Shown here: positions 6,171 to 50,784 of the stretch, in pieces
Position numbering within the stretch: position 1 is the stretch's first letter
Layout of the letters: every line of letters starts with the position of its first letter
Origin: an uncultured bacterium
GTDB lineage: Bacteria > Actinomycetota > Acidimicrobiia > Spongiisociales > UBA5794
Assembly: GCA_963801165.1 (NCBI GenBank)
Contig: CAWDDT010000006.1
Coordinates: 288,001 to 352,000 of the forward strand
Length of the DNA: 64,000 nt
Direction of reading: 5' to 3'
The notes under the pieces: generated by a model
Told to the model about the DNA's origin: nothing
The model's database searches: none
Seen by the model: only the letters and a program-made list of their open reading frames with translations
Position numbers and translations under genes: made by a program

Positions 6171-9100
6171 GTGAAACGAAAGCTATGGACCGTGCTCGCG
6201 GTCTTCGCAATGGTGGCTGCGCTGCTGCCATTGAGTGCCATAGCGGCGGTAGCCGCCCCGGGCACTTCGGTATTTATCAATGAGATCCATTACGACAACA
6301 CGGGGTCCGATTCCGGTGAGGCGGTTGAGGTCGCCGGTCCGGCGGGAACCGATCTGACCGGGTGGAGCATCGTGCTCTACAACGGGAACGGCGGCGCCTC
6401 CTACAACACGACCGCGCTTTCGGGCACACTGGCAGATGACTCCAACGGCTACGGGTTTGTGGTTCTGGACTACCCGTCGAACGGCATCCAGAACGGTGCA
6501 CCCGATGGGTTGGCACTGGTCGACGCCTCCAACAATGTGGTCCAATTCCTCTCCTACGAGGGAACCTTTGCTGCCGTGGGCGGCGCTGCCGACGGGATGA
6601 CCAGCACCGACATTGGTGTGTCGGAAGGTGGATCCGATCCAGCGGGCGAGTCACTGCAGCTGACCGGAACCGGATCGGCCTATGAAGACTTCACCTGGGC
6701 AGGATCGGCGACGAGCACTTTCGGTGCCGTGAACACCGGCCAAACCCTCGTGACCGCTACCTCTTCACCGTTCATCAATGAGATCCATTACGACAACACG
6801 TCTACCGATACCGGTGAGGCGATTGAGGTCGCCGGTCCGGCGGGAACCGACCTGACCGGGTGGAGCATCCTGCTCTACAACGGAAACGGCGGCGCCGTCT
6901 ACGACACCATCGCTCTGTCCGGAACCATCCCCGACCAGGACTCAGGATATGGAACTCTCTCGTTCCCCCGGGCGGGCATCCAGAACGGCTCACCCGATGG
7001 GCTCGCTCTGGTTGATGCATCCAACGGCGTTGTGCAGTTCCTCAGCTATGAGGGCAGCTTCATCGCTGTTGGCGGCGCTGCCGACGGGATGACCAGCACC
7101 GACATCGGGGTTGAGGAAGCCTCGAGCTCTGCGGTTGGCGACTCGCTCCAGCTGACCGGTTCGGGAACGGCCTACGAGGACTTCACCTGGGCAGCATCAC
7201 AGCCCAACACGTTCGGTGCCGTCAACACCGGCCAGAGCTTCGGGATCGTGCTCAACGCTCCCGTTGTTGTCGACTGTGGTGACACGCTCTTCTCGACGGA
7301 GGGCTTCGAGGCAACGAGGACGATCGAAGCATCCGATGCCGACGGCACGGTTGTCGACATCGCGATCACTTCTTCCCCCGTCGCAGGCATCACCCTCGGC
7401 GATCTGGTGCCGGCGAGCGGCGTCGGAGAGACGGCATCGGCCGTCGTGACAGTTGACGCCACCACGGCACCTGGTTCCTACGGTGTCGAGCTGACCGCGA
7501 CCAACGACGACGCCGAACCACAGACTGCGACGTGCACGTTGGACGTCACGGTCGACCCTATTCTGTCCATCGGTACGGTCCAGGGCTCGGTGAGCGACAC
7601 CGACAACGGGGCAACGTTCGACTCGACGTACGTCGGTGACTACGTGACCATCCAGGCCGTCGTCACCCAGCAGGTCCTGAGTCGCACGAGCTCGGGAGAC
7701 AACAGCTACGGCTACTTCCTGCAGAACACCGCAGCGACGGCAGACGGCGACCCGAATTCGTCGGACGGCATCTTCCTGTATACGGGATCCTTCGACGATA
7801 TCTACGTCGGGCCCGGTTACTACACCCCGCAGGTCGGCGACGAGCTCATCATCCGGGCCAAGGTGAGCGAGTACTTCCACCTGACCGAGCTGTCGAGCGC
7901 AAGCCTCGTGTCAATCGTCAGGACCGGTGTCGACGTCGATGCGGAGACGCCCGCGTTCGTGACGAATCCGCCCGCCGACCTCGATGACGCCAACCGATAT
8001 TGGGAGCGCCATGAGGGCATGCGTGCGGAGATCCCCTCCGGGAGCTTTGCACTCGGTGGACGTGACGTGTTCGCTAGCACGGCCGATGGTGAGGTGTGGG
8101 TGGCAACACCCGACAGCCCCATCGCGTCGCTCAGCGGCTATGCCCGCAGGGCGTTCCGCGACGAGCGCAACCTGGCCTCCGGGGTGGCCCCCGGCAACGG
8201 CTACCGCATCGTGATGGGCAGCCTGGGCATCAAGGCCACCGCGGGTGACAACACGGCGCTGATCGCACCGGTGCGGACCTACGACACGCTTACGGCACCC
8301 GCCGTCGGCGGTGTGTACTTCTCGTTTGCGAAGTACCAGATCCAGGTGGGTTCGCAACTCGAGCTCGATGCGGGTCTCAACCCGGCGAACGACTACCCGC
8401 CTCGGACACCCAACGTGGAGGGGCAGTACAGCCTCACCACATTCAACATGGAGAACCTGTACGACTATCGGAACGACCCGTTCGACGGGTGTGACTTCAC
8501 AACCGACACCGGTTGCCCGGGCGTCACCCCGCCGTTCGACTACGTGCCGGCAAGCGATGCGGCCTACCAGACGCGTCTCGGTGAGATCGCCTCGCAGGTG
8601 ATCAACAGCCTCCATGCCCCCGACGTGGTGTATGCGCAGGAGCTCGAGGATCAGGACATCTGCTCGGTCGACGTGTCGTGGACGCTCGTCTGCGGCGCCA
8701 CCAACAACGCCGACGGCAAGCCCGACACGCTCCAGGAGCTGACGACCAAGATCTATGCCCAGAGCGGCATCATGTACGACACGGCGTACGACCGTGACGG
8801 GGCTGATGACCGCGGCATCGTCAACGGCTACATGTTCCGGACCGATCGAGTCGAGCTGCTGCCGGCCGATGCGAGCGATCCCGTGCTCGGGTCCGACCCG
8901 CAGGTCGTCTACCGATCCGACGGGCTGGGCTTCAACACGGACGTGCAGAACCCGAAGTCGCTGAATGCGGATCTTCCGGGCGATGTCGACACGTCGACCG
9001 GCACCGATGGTGACCTGGTCTTCACCAGGGCTCCCCTTGTCGGGCACTTCCGGATCTGGCAGGAGGCCGTCGGGCTCGGGGCGTACACCGACGCCTATCT

Positions 9101-24511: not shown

Positions 24512-24913
24512 TGTTCATTCTCGCCCGGCAACCGACGACGCTGAAAATTGCTCGCCCGGGGGGTTCCGTCGACCTGGGTGAAATCGGCCTGTCGAATGGA
24601 CATTGGATAGGCGGTTCATTCCATCGGATGCCATCATCCGCGCACTCTCTGAGGTCCTGCCTGAGGGCGAAGGCCCGCTGGCGAGCCCCCCGGCCAAGAC
24701 GGACCAAGGGTTGGTGCATTCAACCACGTGAGAGGGTCGGTTCATCCGACGGTGCGGGCACAGAGACAAGGGTGCAACGAAGAGGTCGGGGAACCCACTC
24801 ACGCATCGTTGCTGGGGCAACCGTGCTTGTCCGCGTCATAGCCTCAGTGCAGGCGTCCCCGGTAGCTGCACTCGAGGTCCGTGATCGACGCCGCGCCGTA
24901 TGTCCGTAGGCCT

Positions 24914-25414
24914 GCGCACGTGTCGAGGCATCACCGCTGAGGGTCAAAGTGGGTCGAGGCGGGTCCTGAGCACACAGAACTCATTGCCTTCGGGGTCGGC
25001 CAGGACATGCCACCCCTCCTCCCCCGTCTGGCCGATATCGGCCGGGCGAGCGCCGAGTTCGAGAAGCCGCTCGAGCTCGGCGTCCTGATCGCGGTCGGTG
25101 GCGTTGACGTCGATGTGCAGTCGGGACTTCCCCTCCTCCGGCGGATCCCTGCGACTGAGGATGATCGTCGGCTGCAGACCACCGAACCCTACGTCCGGCC
25201 CGATCTCCAACGTCCCGTCGTCCTCTCGATCGAGCACGACGAAGTCAAGGACCTCACACCGGAACCGCGCCAGCACCTCAGGGTCGCGGCAACCCAGCAC
25301 GAGCTCACTGATACGACATGCCATTGAAAAAGCCCTCTCTCAACTTGGGAACTGCCGACGCCACCGGCGAACCTCCTAGCGCCCAGCAGCGTAAACAACC
25401 CGGCGATCGTACCG
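24914..25414. repeat. ~500-bp segment duplicated in direct orientation at 37382-37820
   Basis: The VOC gene plus both flanks are shared (gcgcacgtgtcgaggcatcaccgctgagg; cccagca.cgtaaacaa...cgatcgtaccg). Confidence 0.9.
24944..25324 (-). CDS. VOC/glyoxalase family protein
   Basis: KSRLHIDV, LLELGA, VLADPEGNEFC. Confidence 0.9.
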   Translation of the reverse strand: MACRISELVLGCRDPEVLARFRCEVLDFVVLDREDDGTLEIGPDVGFGGLQPTIILSRRDPPEEGKSRLHIDVNATDRDQDAELERLLELGARPADIGQTGEEGWHVLADPEGNEFCVLRTRLDPL

Positions 25415-36965: not shown

Positions 36966-37411
36966 GATCTCCTCCGATCTGAAGCCATCCGTGGTGTAAC
37001 GACACGACAAGCAGCTCGCTATGCGACGCAGCCCTGACCACCGCACACACCCCGGCCCGGCGGGGCGGACCTGCGCACTCCACCGCGTCACACGTCAGCT
37101 CGGAAATCGCGCCGTCGACACCGCGCGAGTTACCCGTAATTATCCTCCGCGTAGCTGTGGACGGTCGCGGATGTTTTCGCGAGCTGGTTGACCACCACGG
37201 TTGGCACCGCCAGTGCCGAGACCCGTGGCCTCTTGACCCGAGCTGGAAAAGCGGGGATCCGAGGATACTGGGGAAATGTGCAACACATGCCCCTGGCCTC
37301 AGCGTTCTTCAGCCGGAAAACGCCATTCTCCAACCGCACGACCTCAGTTTTCCCCGGGAAGTGCCGTCTGTCCGCAACCCGGCGCACGTGTCGAGGCATC
37401 ACCGCTGAGGA

Positions 37412-37729
37412 TCAGAGTGGGTCGAGGCGGGCCTCGAGCAGACAGAACGTGTTGCCTTCGGGGTCGGCCAGGACATGCCCCCCCTCGTCCCCCGTCTAGC
37501 CGACATGGGCCGGACGAGCACCGAGTTCGAGAAGGCGTTCGCGTTCAGCGTCCTGATCGCGGTGGGTGGCGTTGACGTCGATATGCAGCCGGGACTTCCC
37601 CTTCTCCGGCTCATCCCTGCGACTGAGGATGATCGTCGGCTGCGGACCGCCGAACCCTGCGCGCGGCCCGATCTCGAGCGTGCCGTCGTCCAGGCGATCG
37701 AGCACGAGCTCACTGATACGACATACCAT
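37412..37729 (-). pseudogene. VOC family pseudogene (copy of 24944..25324)
   Basis: 63-nt in-frame deletion between AGCACGA microhomologies, plus a CAG>TAG stop at 37496-37498. Confidence 0.88.
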
Positions 37730-38045
37730 TAACGAAACCGCCCTCGGCCTCGGAACTGCCGGTGAGGCCACACGCGTACCTCACGCCCCCAGCACCGTAA
37801 ACAATCCCGCGATCGTACCGGACGAGGAGACCACGGGAGAAGTGATTTCCGGGCTGCCCATGGTGACACGAACCGCCTCCGGACCGCTAGGGCGCGACGT
37901 GACGGCGGATGGTGGTTCTACTGGGCGACAATCGGCTGGGGGCGGGGTTCGGGCAGAACATGGTGGCGTCCTCAAAGATCGACCCACCAACGGTTGTGAC
38001 GCTGCGGCAGAACATGGTCTTGTCGCGAAGGAGATACGGAAGTTC

Positions 38046-39431
38046 TTAGGCCTTCACCCGCTCGATCGAGCGGTCCGCACGCAGCACAACGAGCCGTGCC
38101 GCCGCTGACGGCGTGAAGCGCTCGCTGGCAAAGACAACCGCCTCTCGTTTCGTCGCAAATACTCGCTTCGAGATCGCCTTCCCGCGCACTCGATGCACCT
38201 GCCAGCCGCCCGCTGCTCTCGGCTCGACTGTGTCGGTGAGCGACTTCGTGTCGGGGAATGCGTATAGACCCGGCCGACGCGGCAACCATTCGAGATGAGC
38301 GCGATCTGCCGGGATACCCGGCGTAGCTGCGGCGTCGGGTGTCAGCGGCGACGTGGCCCAGAATGTTGTGAACGGCTGCGTCCAGTCGACGGCCTCTGCG
38401 TACGACATCACGGTGCTCCGAGCCGAGTCGATGGCAGCGTCTGTCGACTGACGCCCCAGGAAGTGGAGCCCCTGACGTAGCATGCGCAGCCCCACCGTGA
38501 GCAGCGGTGGACCGAGATTGGCGGCCCGTACCAGTGAGTCGGCAGCCGCCTCCAGGTCACGTTGTTGCGGGTCCCAGAGCATCTGCAAACCGTGGATGAT
38601 GGCGGCATCGGGCAGATAGCTTTTCCAGTTCTCGAAATTGCCGGGCCAGTAATGGAGCCGCCCGTACTCCCCTGCCTTGAGCAGGTAATAGCCTCCGATG
38701 GCCGCGCCCGTAGGATCCGCGAGCTTCTCGAACAACAGACGCTCCGCGGCAACCATTCGACCGGTCTCGACCTCGCCCCGGCTCAGATACCGAAGCACCG
38801 AATCAACCTGGCGGTCGTGTTTGGACGCGAGGTCCGAGGCAATCGATACGCTCACGGCCATTCCTCGCCCGTCCGTAGCCATAGGGGCGACCGGCCGGAT
38901 AGCGATCGAGGCTAGCGATTCAGCCGGGAGGACAGAGACACGTGGCGTGGCCGCTGGTGATCCGATAAGCACGTAGTTCATGCCGCGCGGCAGGAGGTCT
39001 TTGAAGGTGATCTTCCAGGAGATCAGGTCCGACTCGCTGTAGCTGGCGGGCCACGGCTGCGGGTTCGCCCCCCATAGCTGAACCCAGGGTGTCTCTGCTG
39101 CGCTCCGGCGGTGGCTCCGGTACCGTTCCGGGGCGGGCGCTTGCCCGGCGGCCGTCTCCCAACTCAGCCACTCGTGCTGCGACGGCGGCGCTGGGATGTC
39201 GACCTCCCCTTCGCTCGAGGCAGCCACCTGGATCAGACGTCCCCCCGGGAATCTGGCCCGCACCACGTGTCGCTCGCCGGTTACCTCGACACCGGTCACA
39301 TCGCCTACCTGTAGCGACCTTTCTATGAGCAGCTCACCCGAGTCCGCATCGATGATCTCGGCAGTCAGGAGAGCCCCGTCGAGCCGGTTGCCGCCCGTGG
39401 TGTTGATGACCCTGATGTCGAGATGAGTCAT
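38046..39431 (-). CDS. Caspase-associated hypothetical protein with C-terminal DUF2188-like domain
   Basis: ATGA overlap with the caspase stop; tail VEPRAAGGWQV...FATKREAV...LVVLRADRSI resembles DUF2188. Confidence 0.7.
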   Translation of the reverse strand: MTHLDIRVINTTGGNRLDGALLTAEIIDADSGELLIERSLQVGDVTGVEVTGERHVVRARFPGGRLIQVAASSEGEVDIPAPPSQHEWLSWETAAGQAPAPERYRSHRRSAAETPWVQLWGANPQPWPASYSESDLISWKITFKDLLPRGMNYVLIGSPAATPRVSVLPAESLASIAIRPVAPMATDGRGMAVSVSIASDLASKHDRQVDSVLRYLSRGEVETGRMVAAERLLFEKLADPTGAAIGGYYLLKAGEYGRLHYWPGNFENWKSYLPDAAIIHGLQMLWDPQQRDLEAAADSLVRAANLGPPLLTVGLRMLRQGLHFLGRQSTDAAIDSARSTVMSYAEAVDWTQPFTTFWATSPLTPDAAATPGIPADRAHLEWLPRRPGLYAFPDTKSLTDTVEPRAAGGWQVHRVRGKAISKRVFATKREAVVFASERFTPSAAARLVVLRADRSIERVKA

Positions 39432-40558
39432 TCCTCGAGCTCCCATGCGATCTCGGGGTGAGGTGGCTGCGGATTCACCGTCGCTTCATAGGGACGCCAT
39501 CGCCGTGAGAACGTCGCCCGGCCTTGGTACTCCTTGACGGGGAGGCGTATGTGCCACGGTTCAGCACCGTCGAGTCGATGCGCGACGGGTTGACCGGCCC
39601 CCGCCTCGAAGATCGACAGCTCGACACCATCGGTCTCGTGGCCCGGGACGAGCATGATCGTCACAGGGATATCACCAGGACTGTCGGTGCAGTGAATGAG
39701 CGATTCGCGCCGTCCTCCTTCCGGCTGCGAGGTCTGTCGCGGGGCGCCCTCGTGCGCCTGCGCGTATGACATCGCCGCTTCCACACCTTCGGCGAGGTGG
39801 GAGGTGGAGACCCACCACGCACCGCGTCTCGGCCGGCATCCCATCCCCCGGAACGACGCAAGGATCGCTTGGGTAAACGCAGCCACACCCGCTACCTGTC
39901 CATAGGCCGGGTCGGTGGGCAACGTGGCGTAGAGACCGAAGGAATCAACGGCCAGATTCTGGTCAGCCAGCCAATCCGGGATCACCTCCCCGAGTTCGTT
40001 GCCGACCCGAAGAGATTCGAGGGAGACCTGACGACAGGCATCCGCAAAGAAACACTGGATCTTCGCCCGACAAGATGTAGCCATCGCCACGCGGGAGTCG
40101 TCGAAGTTGATTGCATTAGCGAATGGCTGACTGTCCGGGTCGCCGAAATCGGCGACGAGTAGTCCCAGGTGACCTCTCATCAGCCCGTGGCCGCAGAAGT
40201 AGAACATGGCGACGTTGTCTTCATTGCGGTTGCAGCGATCCACCCATTGCCGGAAAGCCGGCCGCAACTCTTCCATGGTTGGTCGTCCGATCCGTTTTGC
40301 CCGGGCCGAGCCGGGGGGTCGGAATCTGCGCGTCGGCGAGACGAGTAAGTCCAGGCTGCCCAGCGGTGCCTCGGAGTTCGTTAGCTCATCCCGGAGAAAG
40401 GTGGCAAACGCCAGTGCGGATTCGGGTGGAGAACTGAGTTTGGCAGTCAGGTTGAGGCCGGCCACGCGAGGGTCATCGATGTAGTCGTATTCGCCGACGC
40501 CGACAACGAGCGCGTGGGTGCGGGGCTCGGCCGATCCGTCGTCGTACAGCGCAGTCAT
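39428..40558 (-). CDS. Caspase-like protease (peptidase C14)
   Basis: ALVVGVGEY, FYFCGHG (His), FADACR (Cys). Confidence 0.9.
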   Translation of the reverse strand: MTALYDDGSAEPRTHALVVGVGEYDYIDDPRVAGLNLTAKLSSPPESALAFATFLRDELTNSEAPLGSLDLLVSPTRRFRPPGSARAKRIGRPTMEELRPAFRQWVDRCNRNEDNVAMFYFCGHGLMRGHLGLLVADFGDPDSQPFANAINFDDSRVAMATSCRAKIQCFFADACRQVSLESLRVGNELGEVIPDWLADQNLAVDSFGLYATLPTDPAYGQVAGVAAFTQAILASFRGMGCRPRRGAWWVSTSHLAEGVEAAMSYAQAHEGAPRQTSQPEGGRRESLIHCTDSPGDIPVTIMLVPGHETDGVELSIFEAGAGQPVAHRLDGAEPWHIRLPVKEYQGRATFSRRWRPYEATVNPQPPHPEIAWELEE

Positions 40559-41643
40559 GCGAGATCGATCACGATGCCGGGGCTCGCGGCTTCGGGGTAG
40601 CTAACCGTGTAGCGATGCCGTTCCATGAGGTGCGGATCATCCCAGACGTCGTTGAATCGAGTCCGGTAGTTGAACAGGAGCTGGGGTCCCGATTCAGGGC
40701 GTTGTCCGCATGCGATCACCCGCGCCACGGCTTCTCTGTCCGGATGCCGGTAGTACGCGCCATTGCTGGAGAAGATGAACCGAGGACACGACACTTGCTC
40801 GACCATTCTTCTCGACACATTCTTCTTACTGCCGTGATGCGGCAGTTTGAAGGCGTCGAGCTCGAGCCGCTCCGATTCTCGCAGCGCCAACAGCCGGCCG
40901 AGAGAGTCCTCTAGAACGTCGGCGTGAGCATCACCGGCGAGCAGAACCGCGACCTCCTGACCATTGTCGGTGTATTCGGCGAGGAGGGCGATGGTCGTGC
41001 CGTTAGCGACGCTGCGATCCGGTGCGAAGGGTGCATCCTTCAATGCATCGAAGTCGAACGAGCCGAACGTCTCCCATCCCGGTAGCTCCTCCGGCACCGA
41101 CGCCGGCACCTCGGGGTCCAAGCCGGCTTCACGCACCACCCTGCTCCACCCCGGCCGGAGGGCGGCGAGCTGCGCCCGGCCCGGGGAGAGCACCGTCATA
41201 CGGAGCCCTCCCGCCAGTTTGCGCGACACCGGTGCCCCTAGGTCCGCGACGGCGATCGCCGGACCGAAGGGTCGGCTCCCGTTCCAGGTTTGGTTGCGAT
41301 CGAGGATTGCCTTGGTGAGTCGTTCGCCTGCGATCGGCCCGAACACCTCGTGCTCTTCCGACAGATGCGGGAATCCGTTGAACCAGATGTCGTCGATTGC
41401 CAGGTTGGTGTCGTTCTCGAGCAAGGTGACGATCCCATCGATGTGGTCCGCATCTATATGGGTCACCACAACGAGATCCACCCGGCGATCGCCCACGGGT
41501 AGGTCCTCGAGGCATCGGAAGACGCTCTCGCTCGTATCTGACGTACCGCCGTCGACGAGGATTCGATGGGGAGCGGCCGGATCGCCGTAGACGATCCAAA
41601 GCGCGTCACCCTGACTCGCCGGCAGCGCGCTGAGACGGAACAC
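40555..41643 (-). CDS. MBL-fold metallo-hydrolase (ComEC/Avs1a-like)
   Basis: QGDA, LVDGG, THIDADHIDG, LLAGDA, KLPHHGS, HP. Confidence 0.88.
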   Translation of the reverse strand: MFRLSALPASQGDALWIVYGDPAAPHRILVDGGTSDTSESVFRCLEDLPVGDRRVDLVVVTHIDADHIDGIVTLLENDTNLAIDDIWFNGFPHLSEEHEVFGPIAGERLTKAILDRNQTWNGSRPFGPAIAVADLGAPVSRKLAGGLRMTVLSPGRAQLAALRPGWSRVVREAGLDPEVPASVPEELPGWETFGSFDFDALKDAPFAPDRSVANGTTIALLAEYTDNGQEVAVLLAGDAHADVLEDSLGRLLALRESERLELDAFKLPHHGSKKNVSRRMVEQVSCPRFIFSSNGAYYRHPDREAVARVIACGQRPESGPQLLFNYRTRFNDVWDDPHLMERHRYTVSYPEAASPGIVIDLA

Positions 41644-41764: not shown

Positions 41765-41812
41765 TCGTCGGCTGACCGGGTTTGAACCCGCGACCTCTTG
41801 ACCCCCAGTCAA
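41765..41812 (-). repeat. att site: displaced 3' half of tRNA-Pro
   Basis: 23-bp exact core GCGACCTCTTGACCCCCAGTCAA at 41790-41812 and 50734-50756, within a ~48-bp imperfect repeat. Confidence 0.9.
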
Positions 41813-42294: not shown

Positions 42295-43014
42295 TCAGGC
42301 TGGATTGCAGGGGTCGTCCCCGGCATTCATGATGGGCGCATCCTCGTTCAGCTGCTGCAGCTGAACGAGCGCGCGGACGCCGGGCCCTTCTGGAGCGTTT
42401 TCGGTTGAGAGCCGGATCCAGAGACTGGCGTCGTCGAGGGGTAGCGCGAGGTTGGGCTGTACGTGAGTGAGACGCCCGGTGGCGCCTGTCGTGACGTTTG
42501 AGAGCGACCCGAGGGGTACCTGATCCTGCCCGCTGCAGGTACCGAGTTCGATCGCGACTTGCGTAGCGGGAGCAGAATCTCGGACGGTGAGCAGCAACCA
42601 GACTACCGGATCGATTGCGGCTGGTTCGTCAACGACTACGAACGTAAGTGTGGCCGACAAGCCGTTCGCCGCCGGCAGGTCGTAGGTTGCAGCGGCCGTT
42701 GGGCCGGAGAACTGGCGGGCATCCGACGCCAGCTCCTCATTCCGAGCCTTCATCGCTTCCAGAGCGGTTTCAACACGTTCGAGCTCCGCCTGCGCTACGT
42801 CCCTGTCCGCCTCGACAGAAGAGACAGCTGCTCGGAGCTGAGCGATCTCTTGACTCGCCAGCTCCGGTCCGTCCGCTAAGGCTCCACGAGCCCCGTTCGA
42901 CCCGGCCGACTGGAGCACCCACCCGGCCGTGAGGCCGAGAGCGAAGACGAGCGCAAACAATCCAAGCCGAGAAATCCACCGCATAGCGCGCGGCCGTCCT
43001 GAGCTGCCGTTCAT
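42295..43014 (-). CDS. Membrane-anchored hypothetical protein (TM, coiled coil, beta-rich domain with 2 Cys)
   Basis: ATGA overlap with the upstream gene; LGLFALVFALGLTAGWVL; heptad segment. Confidence 0.7.
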   Translation of the reverse strand: MNGSSGRPRAMRWISRLGLFALVFALGLTAGWVLQSAGSNGARGALADGPELASQEIAQLRAAVSSVEADRDVAQAELERVETALEAMKARNEELASDARQFSGPTAAATYDLPAANGLSATLTFVVVDEPAAIDPVVWLLLTVRDSAPATQVAIELGTCSGQDQVPLGSLSNVTTGATGRLTHVQPNLALPLDDASLWIRLSTENAPEGPGVRALVQLQQLNEDAPIMNAGDDPCNPA

Positions 43015-43649
43015 TGCGGAGTGGCTCTTGTTAGCGATGCTGCAATCATGGCAGCCCCGGCAAGTCCCCCGGCGATTCGCCACGTGGCCCGCCACCATTG
43101 CGACAGCAGTTGTTCGACGGCGCGTTCCAGGCCGGGATGACCTGACGGAGCGACAGCTCCCAACCAGAATGCGAACGCTCGGCCCGCGCCGAAAGCGAGC
43201 CCTGCTTCCAGGCCGTGGCCGTTGAGAGCAGCGACGATCAAGGCAACCCACAGCAAGGACGACGAGACGACCGTCCACCAGCCCAGGCCCAAGAGAAACC
43301 CAAAGAGAGGGACCCCGACAATGCGACGCTGAGCGGTATGCCGCCAAACCTGGTGACGTCGCGGGGAGAACACGCGCGGGCGACCTGTCAATGACGTCGC
43401 GAGAACGAACCCACCCAGCAATGTGAGGGCAACGCGATAGGTGGAGCCGTCAGTAGCCACGTCCGGGACCAGCCTGTCCAGGGTCGCGAAGGAGGCAACG
43501 GCGCCGGTCATTGCGCCGAGCGTGAAGAGAACCGATCGAGTGATTCGCGTACCTGGTCGACCGACCTGACCGCCGCAGATGGCGTTGATCCCTCAGCCGG
43601 TCGCCGTCATAGCTACCGCTGCCAACAGAGCAAGTACCACGCTCGCCAC
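43011..43649 (-). CDS. MauF/DsbD-like membrane protein with in-frame TGA at codon 19 (probable selenocysteine)
   Basis: GGAGG RBS, GTG 43649, MASVVLALLAAVAMTATG-TGA-GINAICGGQ... continues in frame into ORF 43011..43511; RHQVW, GFLLGLGWWT and FGAGR motifs. Confidence 0.7.
43547..43576 (-). promoter_or_regulatory. Candidate bacterial SECIS hairpin
   Basis: GCGGCGGTCAGGTC-GGTC-GACCAGGTACGC, 17-46 nt after the TGA, apical GGUC loop; folded by hand. Confidence 0.5.
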
Positions 43650-43671
43650 GGAACCTCCCTTCATCAAACCG

Positions 43672-44127
43672 CTAGCAGGCACTTAGAACCCTGGCGCAGA
43701 TGCACCTCACGCCGGCGTCGTTGTCACAATCGCAGCAGATGGTGGTCCGACACGGTGATTGGGTTGTACAGACCCAGCAGCTCATGCCCGAGCCCCAGCT
43801 GTTGGGCTTCGTGCAAGGCGAGTTGCAGGAACTCCCTGAGCAACTGCAGCCATTGGTGCTGCATCCGGTGCCACAGCAAGGCGATGGCCCACAATACTGG
43901 GGACAGCATCCACCTGTCGGTGAACCACAGCTCGCCGCAGTGGCTGACGCGGGGCGGAACAGCGCGCCGTGCGCAAGTGTGTAGGCAAGTCCGTAGAAGG
44001 CTGCATCCGCGGCGCGCCTGAGGAATCGTCGCCGATCCATCGCACCCGCCACACGGGTCGCGGCCGCCACCGCCTTAGGGTGGTCTTCATGCCCGGGATG
44101 TGGCGATGATCGTCCATGGTGTCGCAT
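43672..44127 (-). CDS. Tat-exported cysteine-rich miniprotein (20 Cys in ~89-aa mature part)
   Basis: MDRRRFLRR twin-arginine motif, h-region, ASA cleavage site; CC, CWVC, CCDC, CIC. Confidence 0.85.
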   Translation of the reverse strand: MRHHGRSSPHPGHEDHPKAVAAATRVAGAMDRRRFLRRAADAAFYGLAYTLAHGALFRPASATAASCGSPTGGCCPQYCGPSPCCGTGCSTNGCSCSGSSCNSPCTKPNSWGSGMSCWVCTTQSPCRTTICCDCDNDAGVRCICARVLSAC

Positions 44128-44128
44128 T

Positions 44129-44725
44129 TCAGCCCCCGTCCTCGCCACGACCCTGAAGGACTCGGTTCGTCGGTCGTGGCGAAGGTGACACCGCTGACCA
44201 AGCCAGAGCCTCGAGATCCTCTATTGAGTTGACCAACGACTTGGCAATGACCGTTCCCGTTTCGTCGATCACGTGTACGAACGGCGTGCCCCGGATGTCA
44301 AGGGAATCGAACACCTCCGCATCAACGACACCGGCAACAAGCTTCGTGGCCGGGAGTTCGCCGGTCACAGTGTCGTCGTCTTGGCGCTGCAACCACACGA
44401 ACTCGAGACTCTCGTTCCATCCTGCAATGAAGGAGTCCAGATCAGGAAGGAGGGCCTGGCATATTGGGCAATCTGGCAGTGAGAATATCGCGATGACGGA
44501 CCGCTTGTTTGCCGACCCGTTCCATTCGAGTCGATGCTCGCGCCCGTTGCTAGTGAAACTGATCGGTGGGGCCTTGGTTCCAATCGCGATCCCTCCGAGG
44601 TTCACCCGTCCTCGGCCGCCGAGATACACGAGACCAATCTGCCGGTACAGCAATAGAAGCGCCACACTCGAGAAGACGGCAATGAACCACAGCAGGCCAT
44701 ACGAGAGCCAGAACAGATCGCTCAT
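44129..44725 (-). CDS. MauD-like membrane-anchored thioredoxin
   Basis: LLLLYRQIGLV, GIAIGTKAP, CPIC, GTPF, KSLVNS. Confidence 0.85.
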   Translation of the reverse strand: MSDLFWLSYGLLWFIAVFSSVALLLLYRQIGLVYLGGRGRVNLGGIAIGTKAPPISFTSNGREHRLEWNGSANKRSVIAIFSLPDCPICQALLPDLDSFIAGWNESLEFVWLQRQDDDTVTGELPATKLVAGVVDAEVFDSLDIRGTPFVHVIDETGTVIAKSLVNSIEDLEALAWSAVSPSPRPTNRVLQGRGEDGG

Positions 44726-45252
44726 GGCGCCGACCTCAACTGGAGGCCGAGCTCTTCGAGCACGTTAGGTACGGCAACGACCAGGACAGAACCGAGCAGG
44801 GCCAGCATGTAGAGGAGCGCCCCTTCCGCCGCGCCCAGCCTGCCGAACATCATCGGTGACGGCATTGCCCAGATCACACCGGCCCCGGCGATCAACACGG
44901 CGTTTCGAACGAGAGCAAGGTTGCCCGTTCTAAGGTGCCCTATGCCGCAGCCGCAGGCCGAGGCTACCCCCGCCCGAACATTGGCCGCGATGGCCGCCGT
45001 GAACCCAGCGAGCGTGCCGCCAGCGAGCACGGCCCCAGCTACTCCAGGGATCGACGGCATCAAGAGAAAGGTGGCAGCCAACAGCTCCAGAAAGGGAATC
45101 CCATATGAGACTATCTTGCGAAAACGCGAACGACGCATCAGCCAGACATATCCGGAGAGGGCACGAACAAATTCGTCGCGTGACCGCAGCTTCGCGATGA
45201 AGGAGAGAAGAAAGACGAACCCAAGTGTGAGTCGGATCCATTCGACGTACAC
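44722..45252 (-). CDS. MauE/DoxX family membrane protein
   Basis: FLLSFIAKL, CGCG, LVRN; AAGGAGG RBS before GTG 45252. Confidence 0.88.
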   Translation of the reverse strand: MYVEWIRLTLGFVFLLSFIAKLRSRDEFVRALSGYVWLMRRSRFRKIVSYGIPFLELLAATFLLMPSIPGVAGAVLAGGTLAGFTAAIAANVRAGVASACGCGIGHLRTGNLALVRNAVLIAGAGVIWAMPSPMMFGRLGAAEGALLYMLALLGSVLVVAVPNVLEELGLQLRSAP

Positions 45253-45378
45253 AATCTCCCTCCTTCTGGACAACGATACACACGCATAGCCCAGAATGGG
45301 GGAGCCGCGCAAGAAATCCCTCCTGATCCGGTGGTCGAAGCGCCGTGCCCGGGTCGCAAAGCGTCGTCCTTCCGCATG

Positions 45379-48120
45379 TCATCGGGCGGTGCTACGGGTG
45401 CTGTCTCGGTTTCGGGTGCGTTCGGCGTTGTGGCGTTGTCTGGCGGCTTCGATGCTCTGGTTGATCTTCTGACAGATCTCGTGGTCGTCGTCGGAGCCGT
45501 GAGCTGGCTTGTCGACGTCGTGGTCGGGTGGGTGCGTCCCGGCTTGCAGCTCGACTCCGAGCGAGGAGGTCAACACCCTGCCGGCTTCGAGGCGTGTTCG
45601 TTGGGCGATGGCGGGTTGGTCGATCCAGTGCCGGACCGCGGCTTGGGTAAGCACGTCGGCTGCTGTCTCGCCGTCGTTGGTGACGACGTAGGCGTGGTTG
45701 GAGGTTCGGCCCCGTGTCAGCGGCGTGTAGAGGCCGCGGCTGTCGGTGGGGCCGTCGACGAGGAGGAGCCCGGTGTCGACGGTGCGGCCTTGGGTGGCGT
45801 GGCTCGTCTGCGCGTAGCCCAGCTCGAGGTCCTCGGCGGCGTAGTCGGCGGGTAGACGAACCCTGCCAGCCCTACCGGCGACGGTGACGGCGCCGTCGGG
45901 GTGGATGGCTTCTATGGTCCAGTGGTCCCGGTTCTTCACCATGACGCCGCGGTCGGTGCGTAGGGTGCGCTGGTTGTGGCGGGTGACGACTTCGTCGCCG
46001 ACAAGCAGCCGCTGGCGGCCGAGGCCGAGGGCAGGCCCGTTCGGGTCGAGCTCACCGGTGGCAATGCGTCGTTGTTGGGTTAGCTGGTTGAGACAGTGGA
46101 CGGTGTGGTTGGTGTTGGCCATCAACGCTACCGACTCGCCCCGCCGCCGCGCCTCATGCCAGGCGTCGACGATGGCTGTCTCCATGGCGTTGGGGGTGCC
46201 GTCGTGGAGGCGACCGTGACGCTCATACTCCGCCAAGACGGAGGCATCTCCAGTACGAATTCGCCGGGTGGCGTCGGCTTCCCATTGGTGGGTGAAGCGG
46301 TGGATGTGGTCGAGTTCGACAGCTCCGTGGGTGTCGATGAGGCGGGCGAACATGCCGCCCCGACCGACGGCGGAGAACTGGCGAGGGTCACCCACCATCA
46401 CCACCCGCCATCGTTCCACGTCGGCGAGACAGGTGAGGGCGGCGAGTTTTGGTGTTGAGACGGTGCCGGCCTCATCGACGATCACCGTCGAGCCCCGCGG
46501 GAGATCGTATGGCGGTTGTGGTGGTCGGTCGGGCCGGGCGTGTTCGTAGAGGAGCTTGTCGAGGGTGTCGGCTGGCATGGTGGTTTCTGTGGCGAGCACC
46601 TCGGCGGCTGCTGCGGTGGGTGCCACCCCGAACACCGTCTGACCGCGGTCTTGTAGGTAGGTGACGGCTGGGGTGAGGGCGGTGGTCTTGCCGGATCCGG
46701 CGGGTCCGACGATCAGCTCCAACGGTGCCCCACCGGATGCCGCCCGGCACGCTTCGGCTTGACCCGCGCTCAGACCCTGCGTGTCTAGGCCCCGGGGTCG
46801 GGTGTTGATGATGTCGGCGAAGCGGCGCTGGCGTTGAGCCCACTCCACGATCCGTTCCTCCTCCTCGAGAATGGCGTGGGTGGTGAGGGCCCGGTCGAAG
46901 GCAGCTTCGCTGATCGGGCGCCCATCACGGCGCAACACAGCACCAGACGGCACTGGTGGGGACAGATCGACACAGCGGTTAGCGGCGACGTGGTTGGCGA
47001 GGTCCTGCAAGAAGCTGCTCAGACGATCCGGTTCGACCGTGATACTGGTGGGGACCTGGGCGGCGAGCTCACGGACCAGTTCGGCGGGACGCCACGTCGA
47101 CTGCCGCTCTGCCAACGCCCCTAACGCCGCCTCCACCATTCCGGCCATTGTCGCCTGGTCGATGCCGGTCGCCTCGCGGACACGACCCACCACGGCGGCG
47201 ACGAGGTGGTGTGGTTCGTAGCTGAGGGCTTGCAACCTGCTGCGCCACCCGGCGTGCAACTCGCCGGCTGTGTGACCGTGCGTTTTGGCGGGGCGACTAT
47301 CCAGCACAGCTTCTCGTTCCAGGCGCCACCGTTCCCGTGGTGTCGGCTCCCGCCCGAGGTCGCTACGGAACCGGTCCAGTTTCTCGTCGACACGCGTCTC
47401 GATGTCGCGGCTGCGTTGGGAGAACTCGGCCAGCACCCCCGCATCGACACCGACCATCTCAGAGATCCCATTCACTGGAGGCTGCCAGCGGACTCCGAGG
47501 CGGCGGGTCAGCTCGGCCCGCAACCCGGCGTGATACAACCCCGACAGGGTCCGCTGATCCATCTTCAACGTGCGGGCATCGAGCGCCAACCACCGTCCAT
47601 CCGGAGAGCGGACTCGGTTGGCGATCACCGCATGGGTATGCAGCTGCGGGTCGAGGCGACGGCTGGTGTGCTGACGGAATACCCCCACCACGATTCCTTC
47701 GGCGTCGACACACACCACATGACCCCGCCGCCGCAACCGAGTGTGCGCCTGCGACTCGATCCAGTCGAGCACTGCGTCGACGGCCCGGTCATGCGCCTCC
47801 GTCACCTGCGCTCGCAGTTGTTGGTCGCCGATGGCGAACAGCACCGACACCGACTTCGGCGCCGAAAACGTCGCATCGAACCCCCGCACCGAACCGTCGC
47901 CGAAGCGGCGGCCCAACCGCTCACCGCTCATCGGAGCCAGTCCGGCCATCACCGCCAAGAACGCTTCATCATCGACTTGCCCTCCGAGACCGAGCATCCG
48001 GGCGCCGTGTCCGAACCAGCGACCCGGCGGCTCACCGCTGTCGAGGTAGTACGACGGGAGCTGCTCGGTGTAGTAGCGACCAGCCTCGGTGCCCTTCAAC
48101 GTCGTCACCCGCACCGTCAC
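45379..48120 (-). CDS. MOBF (TrwC-like) relaxase-helicase
   Basis: YY..YY, FSAPKSVS, HTSRRLDPQLHTH, GPAGSGKTT, VDEAG, GYAQTSHATQG. Confidence 0.95.
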   Translation of the reverse strand: MTVRVTTLKGTEAGRYYTEQLPSYYLDSGEPPGRWFGHGARMLGLGGQVDDEAFLAVMAGLAPMSGERLGRRFGDGSVRGFDATFSAPKSVSVLFAIGDQQLRAQVTEAHDRAVDAVLDWIESQAHTRLRRRGHVVCVDAEGIVVGVFRQHTSRRLDPQLHTHAVIANRVRSPDGRWLALDARTLKMDQRTLSGLYHAGLRAELTRRLGVRWQPPVNGISEMVGVDAGVLAEFSQRSRDIETRVDEKLDRFRSDLGREPTPRERWRLEREAVLDSRPAKTHGHTAGELHAGWRSRLQALSYEPHHLVAAVVGRVREATGIDQATMAGMVEAALGALAERQSTWRPAELVRELAAQVPTSITVEPDRLSSFLQDLANHVAANRCVDLSPPVPSGAVLRRDGRPISEAAFDRALTTHAILEEEERIVEWAQRQRRFADIINTRPRGLDTQGLSAGQAEACRAASGGAPLELIVGPAGSGKTTALTPAVTYLQDRGQTVFGVAPTAAAAEVLATETTMPADTLDKLLYEHARPDRPPQPPYDLPRGSTVIVDEAGTVSTPKLAALTCLADVERWRVVMVGDPRQFSAVGRGGMFARLIDTHGAVELDHIHRFTHQWEADATRRIRTGDASVLAEYERHGRLHDGTPNAMETAIVDAWHEARRRGESVALMANTNHTVHCLNQLTQQRRIATGELDPNGPALGLGRQRLLVGDEVVTRHNQRTLRTDRGVMVKNRDHWTIEAIHPDGAVTVAGRAGRVRLPADYAAEDLELGYAQTSHATQGRTVDTGLLLVDGPTDSRGLYTPLTRGRTSNHAYVVTNDGETAADVLTQAAVRHWIDQPAIAQRTRLEAGRVLTSSLGVELQAGTHPPDHDVDKPAHGSDDDHEICQKINQSIEAARQRHNAERTRNRDSTRSTAR

Positions 48121-48600: not shown

Positions 48601-48697
48601 AACCTGCCACCTTTGATCTCACTGCCTACTCCTTGTATCATACACAGAGTTTCAGCGCACTACCACCACAAGTCACAAGTTGTGTATGCTTTTGGTG

Positions 48698-49435
48698 ATG
48701 ATCCCACAGCCCAACCCACCACCGCCCGAGGACATCGACCTCAACCAGGTGGTCGCCTACAACATCCGCGAAGCCCGCCAACTACGCAGCTGGACCCAAG
48801 AAGACCTCGCCGACCGGCTCGAGCCATACCTCGGCCAGCGACTCACCCAGGCCGGTGTCTCCTCCATCGAACGGGCCTGGGACGGGGAACGGCGCCGCGA
48901 GTTCGACGCCCACGAACTGCTCATCTTCGCCATGGTTTTCGACCTACCCATCCTCTGGTTCCTCCTCCCACCACCCGGCGACCACCGGATAATGCGCTCC
49001 ACCACCCGACCCATCGACGAGCTGTACACATGGCTGCTAGGACAGCCCCACCAACTCGAACCGCTCTATGAACGGCTCCGGCAGATCGGTATCACCGAAC
49101 CCACCACAGCCGAACAGACCATTGAGAAGATCACCGGGATCCCCGCCGACGCAAAACAGTGGAGCTACCGGGAACGCCGCAAGGAACTCCTCTTGGCGCT
49201 CCTCAACGAACACGCCGACTCGCTCGACAACGCCGTCGAAGAACTCGGCCGGGTCGTCGACCACCTCCGGCAGGTGGGCATCCGTGGATTCATCGCCGAA
49301 CACACCGGCGACGAGGACTTCACCTATCCGGACGGGCGCGCGCCAACCCTGGAAACTCAACCGGCCACCGGCGTGGACAAGACGACACCAGGCGGCACCA
49401 ACGAACACCGTAAGTCAGCGGGAGAAACAGGATGA
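48698..49435 (+). CDS. XRE-family regulator of the element
   Basis: NIREARQLRSWTQEDLADRL HTH; divergent from the excisionase; TATGCT just upstream. Confidence 0.85.
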   Translation: MIPQPNPPPPEDIDLNQVVAYNIREARQLRSWTQEDLADRLEPYLGQRLTQAGVSSIERAWDGERRREFDAHELLIFAMVFDLPILWFLLPPPGDHRIMRSTTRPIDELYTWLLGQPHQLEPLYERLRQIGITEPTTAEQTIEKITGIPADAKQWSYRERRKELLLALLNEHADSLDNAVEELGRVVDHLRQVGIRGFIAEHTGDEDFTYPDGRAPTLETQPATGVDKTTPGGTNEHRKSAGETG

Positions 49436-49469: not shown

Positions 49470-50642
49470 GTGACTGAGAAGAGGCGACCCAGAGGTACGG
49501 GCTCAATTCGCGAGCGTGGCGAGCGCTACCAAGCCATCTACTCATACATTGACGGAAGCGGGAAGCGTCGTCGTCGCTCCAGGACCTTCGACACTAAAAC
49601 GAGGGCGCGGAAGTGGCTGAACGATCGTCTCGCCGATGTGGGACACGGCCGAATCGCTGATCCGCGCGTAGTCTCCGTCGGTGAGTACCTTCAGAACTGG
49701 CTCGGATCCCTCGGCATGCAGCAGCTCGAAGCTGCAACCGTGTCCTGGTATCGGTCGGCGGTGGTCCGGCACATCGTCCCGGAGCTTGGCACGGTCAAAC
49801 TCTCGAAGCTGTCGGCGGTGCAGATCGAATCGTTCCTCGCTGACAAAGCCAAGTCAGGTCGCCTTGACGGTGCCGGCGGTCTCGGCCCTGCGTCGGTGCG
49901 GCGACTACAGGTGACATTGCACAAGGCGCTCGACGCTGCGGTACGCAAGGGGATGCTCGCCACTAACCCGGCCGACCTCGCGGATAAGGTGAAGGTCCCG
50001 CCGCGCGATGTAACGGAGACGGTGTGGAGTCCGGCGATGATGACGACGTTCCTCTCAGCGACGGCGTCTGACCGACTTCACCCGATCTGGCAGACAGCCT
50101 GCATGACAGGATTGAGGCGGTCTGAGCTTGCTGGCCTGCAATGGCCCGACATCGACCTCGACGGCGGACTGCTGAGCGTGAAGCGGGCTCGAACTCAGGT
50201 GGACGGCCAGCCGGTGGTGAAAGGCCCGAAGTCGGCGGCGTCACGTCGGATCGTGGATCTTGATTCGGAGACGGTCATCGTCCTGAGACGGTGGAAGGTC
50301 GCACAACTTGAGGAACGTCTACGGGCTGGCACAGCCTGGCAGCCCGGAGACTGGGTGTTCACCAATCAGATTGGGGCACCGTGGCGACCCGACAGGCTCA
50401 CACGAGCGTTTGTGGACCGGGCGAGCGCCCTGGGCCTTCCAGCGACCGACGTCAAGGGTCTGAGACACGCTCACGCCACAGCCTTGCTCCGGGCCGGTGT
50501 CCATCCCAAGGTCGTGCAAGAAAGGCTCGGCCACTCGTCGATCAGCGTAACAATGGACATTTACTCGTCGGTGTTGCCTGGAATGCAACGTGAAGCGGTC
50601 GAGAAGCTGGCGTTGCTGATGGACTCGTTAGGCGCCCCGTAG
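49470..50642 (+). CDS. Tyrosine recombinase / integrase
   Basis: TGLRRSE, KGLRHAHAT, RLGHS, DIYS; adjacent to the tRNA. Confidence 0.95.
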   Translation: MTEKRRPRGTGSIRERGERYQAIYSYIDGSGKRRRRSRTFDTKTRARKWLNDRLADVGHGRIADPRVVSVGEYLQNWLGSLGMQQLEAATVSWYRSAVVRHIVPELGTVKLSKLSAVQIESFLADKAKSGRLDGAGGLGPASVRRLQVTLHKALDAAVRKGMLATNPADLADKVKVPPRDVTETVWSPAMMTTFLSATASDRLHPIWQTACMTGLRRSELAGLQWPDIDLDGGLLSVKRARTQVDGQPVVKGPKSAASRRIVDLDSETVIVLRRWKVAQLEERLRAGTAWQPGDWVFTNQIGAPWRPDRLTRAFVDRASALGLPATDVKGLRHAHATALLRAGVHPKVVQERLGHSSISVTMDIYSSVLPGMQREAVEKLALLMDSLGAP

Positions 50643-50704: not shown

Positions 50705-50710
50705 TGCTCG

Positions 50711-50784
50711 TCGGGCTGGCCGGATTTGAACCGGCGACCTCTTGACCCCCAGTCAAGCGCGCTGCCAAGCTGCGCCACAGCCCG
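50711..50784 (-). tRNA. tRNA-Pro(GGG)
   Basis: CGGGCTGTGGCGCAGCTTGGCAGCGCGCTTGACTGGGGGTCAAGAGGTCGCCGGTTCAAATCCGGCCAGCCCGA folds as a cloverleaf; CCA not encoded. Confidence 0.96.

Follow-up and report, generated by a model that had tools for sequence, protein, structure and literature searches.

A mobilizable MauE-MauD-MauF-like gene cassette with a candidate oxidative-folding client of 20 cysteines in an uncultured acidimicrobial bacterium

Introduction

In the methylamine dehydrogenase (mau) cluster of Paracoccus denitrificans plasmid 1 (L018), mauE and mauD precede the gene for a small, cysteine-rich protein exported by the twin-arginine translocation (Tat) system, the light chain MauA. 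The same order of E, D and, by prediction, a small Tat-exported, cysteine-rich protein occurs in a cassette of five genes, g1 to g5, on the minus strand of a 64,000-nucleotide stretch from an uncultured bacterium of the class Acidimicrobiia (GenBank assembly GCA_963801165.1, contig CAWDDT010000006.1, positions 288,001 to 352,000), the whole of which is termed the window below. We analyzed these genes (42295-45312 of the window) and propose, at a probability of about 0.68, that they constitute a self-contained oxidative-folding cassette together with its client, a secreted protein of ~10 disulfides, carried on an integrative mobilizable element. An initial annotation, made from the letters of the window, had placed the operon at 42295-45252 and described MauE-like (CGC), MauD-like (CPIC) and MauF-like genes around a Tat precursor whose ~89 mature residues hold 20 Cys and 2 Trp, without MauB or MauG in the element; it supposed that the machinery had been repurposed to form up to 10 disulfides and was spread by such an element.

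MauE itself has recently been presented as a generalist in a preprint (10.64898/2026.03.05.709764). According to the portion of that text available to us, MauE from two phyla substitutes for DsbB in E. coli in two assays and complements a dsbB deletion, and mutagenesis showed that its function requires a CXC motif, directly after which Phe-Gly is highly conserved. Fusions with thioredoxin-like domains make up 8.2% of entries, and the family mostly occurs without MauA, which is present in 10.2% of MauE-bearing species. An earlier study, cited in the same preprint, had proposed that MauE is a reductase. In addition, genome mining with decRiPPter (PMC7794033, 2020) flagged three candidate families of RiPPs (peptides made by ribosomes and modified after translation) with mauE in Streptomyces, one of them also with mauD; in the sections available to us these are uncharacterised, their precursors have at least 8 Cys and their genomes are without other mau genes. 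A comparable logic, i.e., a membrane-bound, quinone-linked oxidase with a thioredoxin-fold carrier, is known from DsbA/DsbB pairs and from pairs of vitamin K epoxide reductase (VKOR) with a DsbA-like protein, although these belong to other protein families and are housekeeping systems with many substrates, whereas the cassette is co-inherited with a single client.

Results and Discussion

The five open reading frames (ORFs) lie head to tail on the minus strand and mostly overlap. The first, g1 (44722-45312), encodes a MauE-family membrane protein and starts with a TTG that has an AGGAGG 7 nt upstream; position 45252, formerly taken as the end of the operon, is an internal GTG of this gene. It joins g2 (44129-44725), which encodes a MauD-like, membrane-anchored thioredoxin-fold protein, in an ATGA, a 4-nt overlap. 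The third gene, g3 (43672-44148), encodes a predicted twin-arginine precursor of 158 aa that starts at either a GTG (44148) or an ATG (44127), and it overlaps or abuts g2 depending on that start. After a gap of 160 nt follows g4 (43011-43511), encoding a 166-aa membrane protein, which shares another ATGA with g5 (42295-43014), encoding a 239-aa anchored orphan protein. We set the start of g5 at the ATG at 43014 because it fits both the g4/g5 junction and the homologues, one in the closest metagenomic relative (contig L001), and the other a single database protein (P0091). A 350-aa version of g5 in the mechanical ORF list was rejected, as it runs back through g4. A promoter and terminator scan returned nothing usable. 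A search for sequencing runs with this DNA listed four, all from one soil study and none of RNA.

The redox pair was identified as first described. g1 scored 80.2 bits on the Pfam MauE family PF07291, for which the cut-off is 27 (E 2.2e-22, with the match spanning positions 5-126 of the 128 in the profile), and has its CXC motif as CGC at residues 120-122, together with Lys41 and Glu76. Like the MauE proteins of the preprint (10.64898/2026.03.05.709764), it belongs to this Pfam family, carries CGC in the loop that precedes the final helix, and has a Lys and a Glu within helices one and two. Those proteins are, as far as the available text describes them, stand-alone generalists from Calditrichota and Thermodesulfobacteriota with Phe after the CXC, whereas g1 is mobile, tied to one client, has Gly at that position and is one of four MauE copies in its genome. 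g2 begins with a hydrophobic anchor, has CPIC at residues 86-89 and matched Redoxin in Pfam (E 3.7e-5). It also matched the MauD model TIGR02661 (E 3.3e-12), with 46.3 bits and hence under the 188.6-bit equivalog cut-off. Likeness to MauD spans 88% of its length, at ~28% identity to the MauD of the methylamine dehydrogenase cluster, and tblastn retrieved 32 plasmid records; among the 30 listed, identities were 24-32% and 19 fell under an annotated mauD gene. g2 would accordingly be classed, by its sequence, as a MauD-like relative and not as a MauD equivalog. Because of the preprint's results on MauE, g1 is read here as a quinone-linked oxidase, g2 as its carrier and g3 as the client.

The g3 protein comprises, in order, a leader of ~69 residues with the motif DRRRFLRR and then a hydrophobic stretch, a predicted cleavage between ASA and T, and predicted mature residues 70-158. 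The 89 mature residues hold exactly 20 Cys and 2 Trp, confirming the first count; Cys makes up 22% of them, with CxC and CC motifs. From DRRRFLRR, the hydrophobic stretch and the ASA, g3 is predicted to be a twin-arginine precursor, and its host has TatC. An exhaustive profile search among 1.84 billion sequences yielded 74 representatives at E<=1e-3, 33 at 1e-10 and 4 at 1e-30. The family alignment contains 63 sequences, i.e., the window protein, P0001 and P0002, and 60 of the 73 hits P0003-P0075; twelve hits that looked truncated or frameshifted were left out (P0017, P0032, P0035, P0037, P0054, P0058, P0061, P0062, P0066, P0067, P0073, and P0074), and P0014 (126 aa) also stands outside it. 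All members with source names are called hypothetical proteins, and none of the 63 matched a Pfam family even at E<=10, apart from a TAT_signal match in one member at E 9.6. Searches of PDB sequence profiles with g3 alignments gave only signal-peptide or chance matches, with no light chain listed, and tblastn of g3 against 72,556 plasmids gave no match.

Invariant in the family are C86, C103, C108, C124, W125, C138, C139, D140, C141, C149 and the first twin arginine, with Trp125 and Asp140 kept in 63 of 63 members. The mature cysteine count is even in 59 of the 63 by script, and in 60 when P0005 is included (misparsed as zero, truly 20); the commonest counts are 18, 20 and 22. This parity is relevant since full disulfide pairing predicts it, and it lends support to the earlier estimate of up to 10 disulfides, which also fits the description of MauE as a DsbB-like oxidase with a CXC site in the available part of the preprint (10.64898/2026.03.05.709764). 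An AlphaFold 2 (AF2) model of g3, made from the family alignment, has a mean predicted local distance difference test (pLDDT) score of 82, reaching ~85-94 over most of the mature part, and contains five strands.

So many cysteines could also bind metal. By this account, g3 would be metallothionein-like, loaded with metal in the cytoplasm and exported in the folded state, and g1 and g2 would be its reductase or isomerase, preserving or rearranging thiols instead of oxidising them. The cysteine content and the CxC and CC motifs would suit such a protein, and the Tat system is the usual route of cofactor-loaded proteins. Even cysteine counts, the invariant aromatic and acidic residues, and a model that is confidently beta-sheet instead of a coil wrapped around a cluster all argue for disulfides instead, and the element contains no metal transporter or chaperone gene. 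As for g1, the proposal of a reductase cited in the preprint fits metal loading, whereas the substitution of MauE for the oxidase DsbB in two assays, as reported in the part available to us, does not (10.64898/2026.03.05.709764). We therefore regard metal loading as improbable and the disulfide-bonded client as the better account of g3.

Amine dehydrogenase clusters offered a second comparison. Heavy chain, MauE, MauD and light chain occurred in all four clusters examined; with MauE, MauD and light chain in this order in 4 of 4, g3 therefore occupies the light chain's place. Its leader is of the same type. When the family profile was compared with that of four light chains by hhalign, 36 columns aligned (89%, E 2e-6), all in the leader and including the stretch before the twin arginines, so that g3 shares with MauA a long leader of twin-arginine type in which residues ahead of the RR are conserved. 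A hidden Markov model (HMM) of the leader, run against 36,267 long open segments of the bacterium's own genome, found only g3 below E 0.01, and 16 of these segments carry a crude Tat-like motif. No signal came from the mature domains in the same comparison (E 0.86, probability 0.05%). The profile comparison with MauA that had been suggested at the outset thus gave a positive answer for the leader and none for the mature part.

These likenesses raise the possibility that g3 is a very divergent light chain of the tryptophan tryptophylquinone (TTQ) type, a small subunit with a redox or catalytic task in which Trp125, with Asp140, would become a protein-derived quinone or cross-link, either alone or with g5 in place of the heavy subunit. 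The gene position, the leader and the invariance of Trp125 and Asp140 speak for it. In a structural search of the g3 model against 48,161 chains, moreover, the top two matches were light chains, of aromatic amine dehydrogenase (2agl_D; Z 3.6, root-mean-square deviation (rmsd) 3.4, 62 residues aligned) and of methylamine dehydrogenase (3c75_M; Z 3.2, rmsd 3.3, 63 aligned), although by the method's own rule these values tie with unrelated rows at 2.8, the usual level being 7-8. Foldseek found no match of the model in the PDB at E<=0.001, and a second look among its 796 best chains listed no amine dehydrogenase light chain (top Z 2.8). When a replicate AF2 model was built with another family member first, the structural match covered leader helix residues 1-48 only. 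A forced alignment of the g3 family with MauA is collinear at CxC-SGxS, Trp, CC and RCxC, without statistical weight. In this alignment, g3 ends before the C-terminal MauA segment that holds what we take to be the second TTQ tryptophan, and the other is paired with W118, a position at which 17 of the 63 members have Tyr, His or Phe. The light-chain family PF02975 matched none of the 63 even at E<=10, with cysteines in even number no Cys is spare for a link to Trp, and MauA has 12 Cys (12 invariant columns in four light chains) against 20 in g3.

The remaining parts of a TTQ pathway were sought in the genome of the bacterium (13 contigs; completeness 98.19%, contamination 5.59%). MauA (PF02975), MauB (PF06433) and MauG (PF03150) had no matches in it, in line with the initial observation that MauB and MauG are missing from the element. 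The same search recovered MauA (3.6e-54) and MauB (2.4e-212) from the P. denitrificans plasmid, and among 14 control genomes PF03150 matched in four and PF02975 and PF06433 in none. While the methylamine dehydrogenase cluster has a heavy subunit, MauG, amicyanin, MauJ, MauM and MauN, the own genome is without them, and the element contains no flavoprotein or radical-SAM gene. A TTQ-type g3 therefore seems to us unlikely, and we retain the disulfide-bonded client. This is separate from the matter of ancestry. With a leader of the MauA type and the position that MauA takes behind E and D, g3 may be a distant cousin of MauA and not an unrelated client; common descent of the two mature domains is possible but unproven, and the common leader type is the firmer result. 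That the machinery was "repurposed" is consequently not established.

g4 had been described as MauF-like, and this holds for half of MauF. Its profile aligned with that of MauF (hhalign 92.5%, E 4.8e-7, 88 columns) over MauF residues 139-234 only, and when five F proteins of such cassettes were combined into an HMM, it matched two genuine MauF proteins outside the training set (3e-15 and 4e-23). MauF has ~280 residues with conserved Cys in its N-terminal half, whereas g4, a homologue of the C-terminal half, has 166 residues and no Cys and can therefore not serve as a thiol relay. Homology over the whole length of MauF was not found, the upstream space is too small for a longer ORF, and g4 matched no Pfam or NCBIfam family. 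The gene order differs as well, since MauF leads the mau operon at full length and the half-length F of the cassette follows the client.

g5 has an N-terminal membrane anchor, a coiled-coil stretch, and a C-terminal beta-rich domain with two conserved Cys (160 and 236). It matched no Pfam or NCBIfam family, and a search of 5.8 billion proteins gave two matches only, a copy of g5 itself and P0091 (47%). The gene in the same position in L001 is 26% identical (25% in alignment), and a counterpart of g5 accompanies only the window and L001 cassettes. All structural neighbours in the Atlas had template-modeling (TM) values below 0.5 and scores below 0.8. Prediction of a complex between residues 100-239 of g5 and mature g3 gave scores of 0.44, 0.03 and 0.02.

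Together, these features suggest the following working model. The host Tat system would export the g3 precursor by means of its long MauA-type leader; outside the membrane, the anchored g2 would insert disulfides into the 20 cysteines through its CPIC, and g1 would re-oxidise g2 through its CGC loop and pass the electrons to the membrane quinone pool. Signal peptidase would then free an 89-residue, beta-rich protein held by ~10 disulfides. g4 may be a non-redox helper, i.e., a scaffold or a factor in leader or substrate handling, and g5 perhaps an accessory, anchored protein present with the nearest relatives alone. As to the role of g3 itself, a function outside the classes named here comes nearest to an even chance, a secreted antagonistic or protective factor is a tentative candidate, and either a redox or cofactor protein or a metal binder would be unlikely.

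Several observations weigh against this model. In g1, the CGC is followed by Gly-Ile-Gly in place of the conserved Phe-Gly, as it is in the L001 orthologue, and the TIGR02661 score of g2 is sub-threshold. g4 is without cysteine and without the N-terminal half of MauF. Three of the 63 family members have an odd mature cysteine count. The Tat model TIGR01409 did not match g3, and TAT_signal was found in the single member mentioned above; for its assignment to Tat we therefore rely on the motif. Tat normally transports folded proteins, which makes it unclear where the disulfides would form. Given the earlier proposal of MauE as a reductase, electron flow could also run in reverse. Finally, the HMMs for E, D and F used in the survey below were trained partly on the window, L001 and L017, and only L029-L031 are independent tests.

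A survey of homologue neighbourhoods had been proposed with the initial annotation. E, D, the Cys-rich protein and F lie on one strand in the same order in six of seven loci with a g3 family member, across two phyla: the window, L001, L017 (in G001, a genome from unpublished data), L029 (a Gemmatimonadota metagenome-assembled genome (MAG)) and L030 and L031 (Actinomycetota MAGs). In L001, MauD is split in two frames (7302-7986), by a frameshift or an assembly error. The seventh locus, L032, matches only in part and lies near the end of its contig; the 6 kb upstream of it contain none of E, D and F. The first g3 alignment had recovered no relatives on genome or metagenome contigs, and narrower alignments gave L001 and L029-L032. 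The flanks of L029-L031 showed neither an integrase nor a relaxase. In two unrelated loci, L017 (3793-4377) and L029 (7300-7896), F has a gene for an extracytoplasmic function (ECF) sigma factor as its neighbour, which hints at envelope-stress control. Of 401 genomes sampled from the phylum, 13 gave a match; in the own genome and G001 it included the mature domain, in the others the leader region. These leader matches pointed to further Cys-rich precursors.

The cassette system is not unique. A separate twin-arginine family of 176 aa (A7), with ~10 Cys and no Pfam match, occurs in six genomes (L006, L007, L008, L011, L013, and L014; L011 is an unpublished genome). MauD lies directly upstream of it in 6 of 6, an F homologue of the half-MauF type accompanies it in 5 of 6, and MauE is present in four of the 3.2-kb loci examined. 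The MauD of L014 reaches 1e-30 on TIGR02661, and the short A7 loci show no heavy subunit. By hhalign, the A7 leader resembles that of MauA (95.8%) and that of the g3 family (95.7%). A further E-D-Cys-F cassette (L005, G144:C73, 90-2467) has a Cys-rich client of ~100 aa that differs from the rest. In five further loci (L004, L009, L012, L015, and L016), a small, Cys-rich, Tat-like protein has none of E, D and F within 1.5 kb. The match in L010 is an unrelated protein of 518 aa.

The bacterium's own genome contains four MauE-like loci. One, on contig C4 (L022, 1462-2735), lies directly after topA (topoisomerase I) and encodes a MauE with a canonical CGCFG, followed by a DsbA-like thioredoxin protein; VKOR had no match in this genome. 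This pair is plausibly the housekeeping disulfide pathway, and the host may rely on MauE generally. Since the host already has it, the cassette would be an addition and not the housekeeping system. On contig C13 (L027, 4366-9867; ~166365-171866), a second cassette consists of MauE, a MauD-like protein, a different client of 127 aa that contains 17 Cys, and an F-like protein. It adjoins a TrwC relaxase 83% identical to that of the window and an HTH_17 excisionase-like gene, with no tRNA in the 19 kb examined. The two cassettes can hardly be aligned with each other. Judging from these genes, they look like the swapped cargo, of the same design, of sibling elements.

These loci bear on whether the cassette could be a general disulfide system for the host, with g3 as a client among many or as a passenger with no relation to it. 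Such a system would accord with the presentation of MauE as a generalist and with the presence of MauA in just 10.2% of MauE-bearing species, figures given in the accessible part of the preprint (10.64898/2026.03.05.709764). Against this, the host has the MauE and DsbA-like pair and two further MauE loci, E, D and F are immediate neighbours of g3 relatives in the six loci from two phyla, the 4-nt gene overlaps suggest coupled translation, and the other E-D-F cassettes each hold a Cys-rich Tat protein of their own. A general role is thus very unlikely in our view, and we keep to a cassette dedicated to g3.

The surroundings of the cassette agree with the element first proposed. At the left end of the element, 43 nt (41770-41812) repeat the 3' part of a tRNA-Pro gene; this left attachment (att) repeat is 93% identical to the right repeat (50714-50756), which lies inside the tRNA-Pro (GGG) at 50710-50784 on the minus strand (ARAGORN), the integration site. 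The 8.9 kb between these direct repeats hold eight genes only, namely the five of the cassette, a TrwC-type relaxase with a superfamily 1 (SF1) helicase domain (45379-48120, minus; PF08751 7e-81, AAA_30 6e-52), a helix-turn-helix (HTH) regulator (48680-49435, plus; HTH_3 2.4e-4) and a tyrosine integrase (49470-50642, plus; Phage_integrase 7.6e-21); no mating-pore genes are among them. This gene content identifies it as a putative integrative mobilizable element with the cassette as its sole apparent cargo.

Just beyond the left repeat, a gene of the metallo-beta-lactamase fold shares 4 nt with a gene for a caspase (Peptidase_C14; both within 39428-41643, minus), and the two may be a defence-type pair; their position led us to reject them as cargo. 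Farther away, a direct repeat of ~300 nt, 88% identical, occurs at 24895-25414 and 37363-37820, 12.4 kb apart, with shorter flanking repeats.

Compared with earlier genome mining, the decRiPPter families (PMC7794033) likewise have MauE/MauD homologues beside a small Cys-rich precursor. In the available text on them, neither a Tat leader nor a homologue of MauF nor a mobile element is mentioned, whereas the cassette has a predicted Tat leader and both of the others. We found no description in the literature of the g3 family, the common leader, the half-MauF partner or carriage on a mobilizable element. What is new is the MauA-like leader of g3; the kind of cassette had already been flagged by genome mining. 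A bolder construction of the same facts would make MauE-MauD-MauF a leader-addressed, RiPP-like maturation system for a set of Tat-exported miniproteins that look unrelated and are very rich in disulfides, with MauA as the only client studied, and g3 a MauG-free redox-cofactor miniprotein and sister of the TTQ light chains. Its Cys-Trp and Cys-Cys-Asp-Cys sites would yield a cofactor or cross-link in a free-standing extracellular protein spread on mobilizable elements. Taken jointly, these propositions face long odds, and oxidative folding of a Cys-rich client is the reading we prefer.

Conclusions

If ten disulfides do form in 89 residues, their density would be extreme for a bacterial protein, and the client would travel with its own folding machinery. 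MauE-MauD-MauF looks like a portable kit for several Cys-rich exported families with a MauA-type leader, beyond methylamine metabolism. To our knowledge, the roles of MauD and MauF have been unsettled since the 1990s, and loci such as this one make these roles testable, along with a private, leader-directed route of oxidative folding. A compact cassette that folds knotted miniproteins could also serve the production of disulfide-rich peptides. The larger significance for the bacterium and for the g3 family still depends on the miniprotein's own function.

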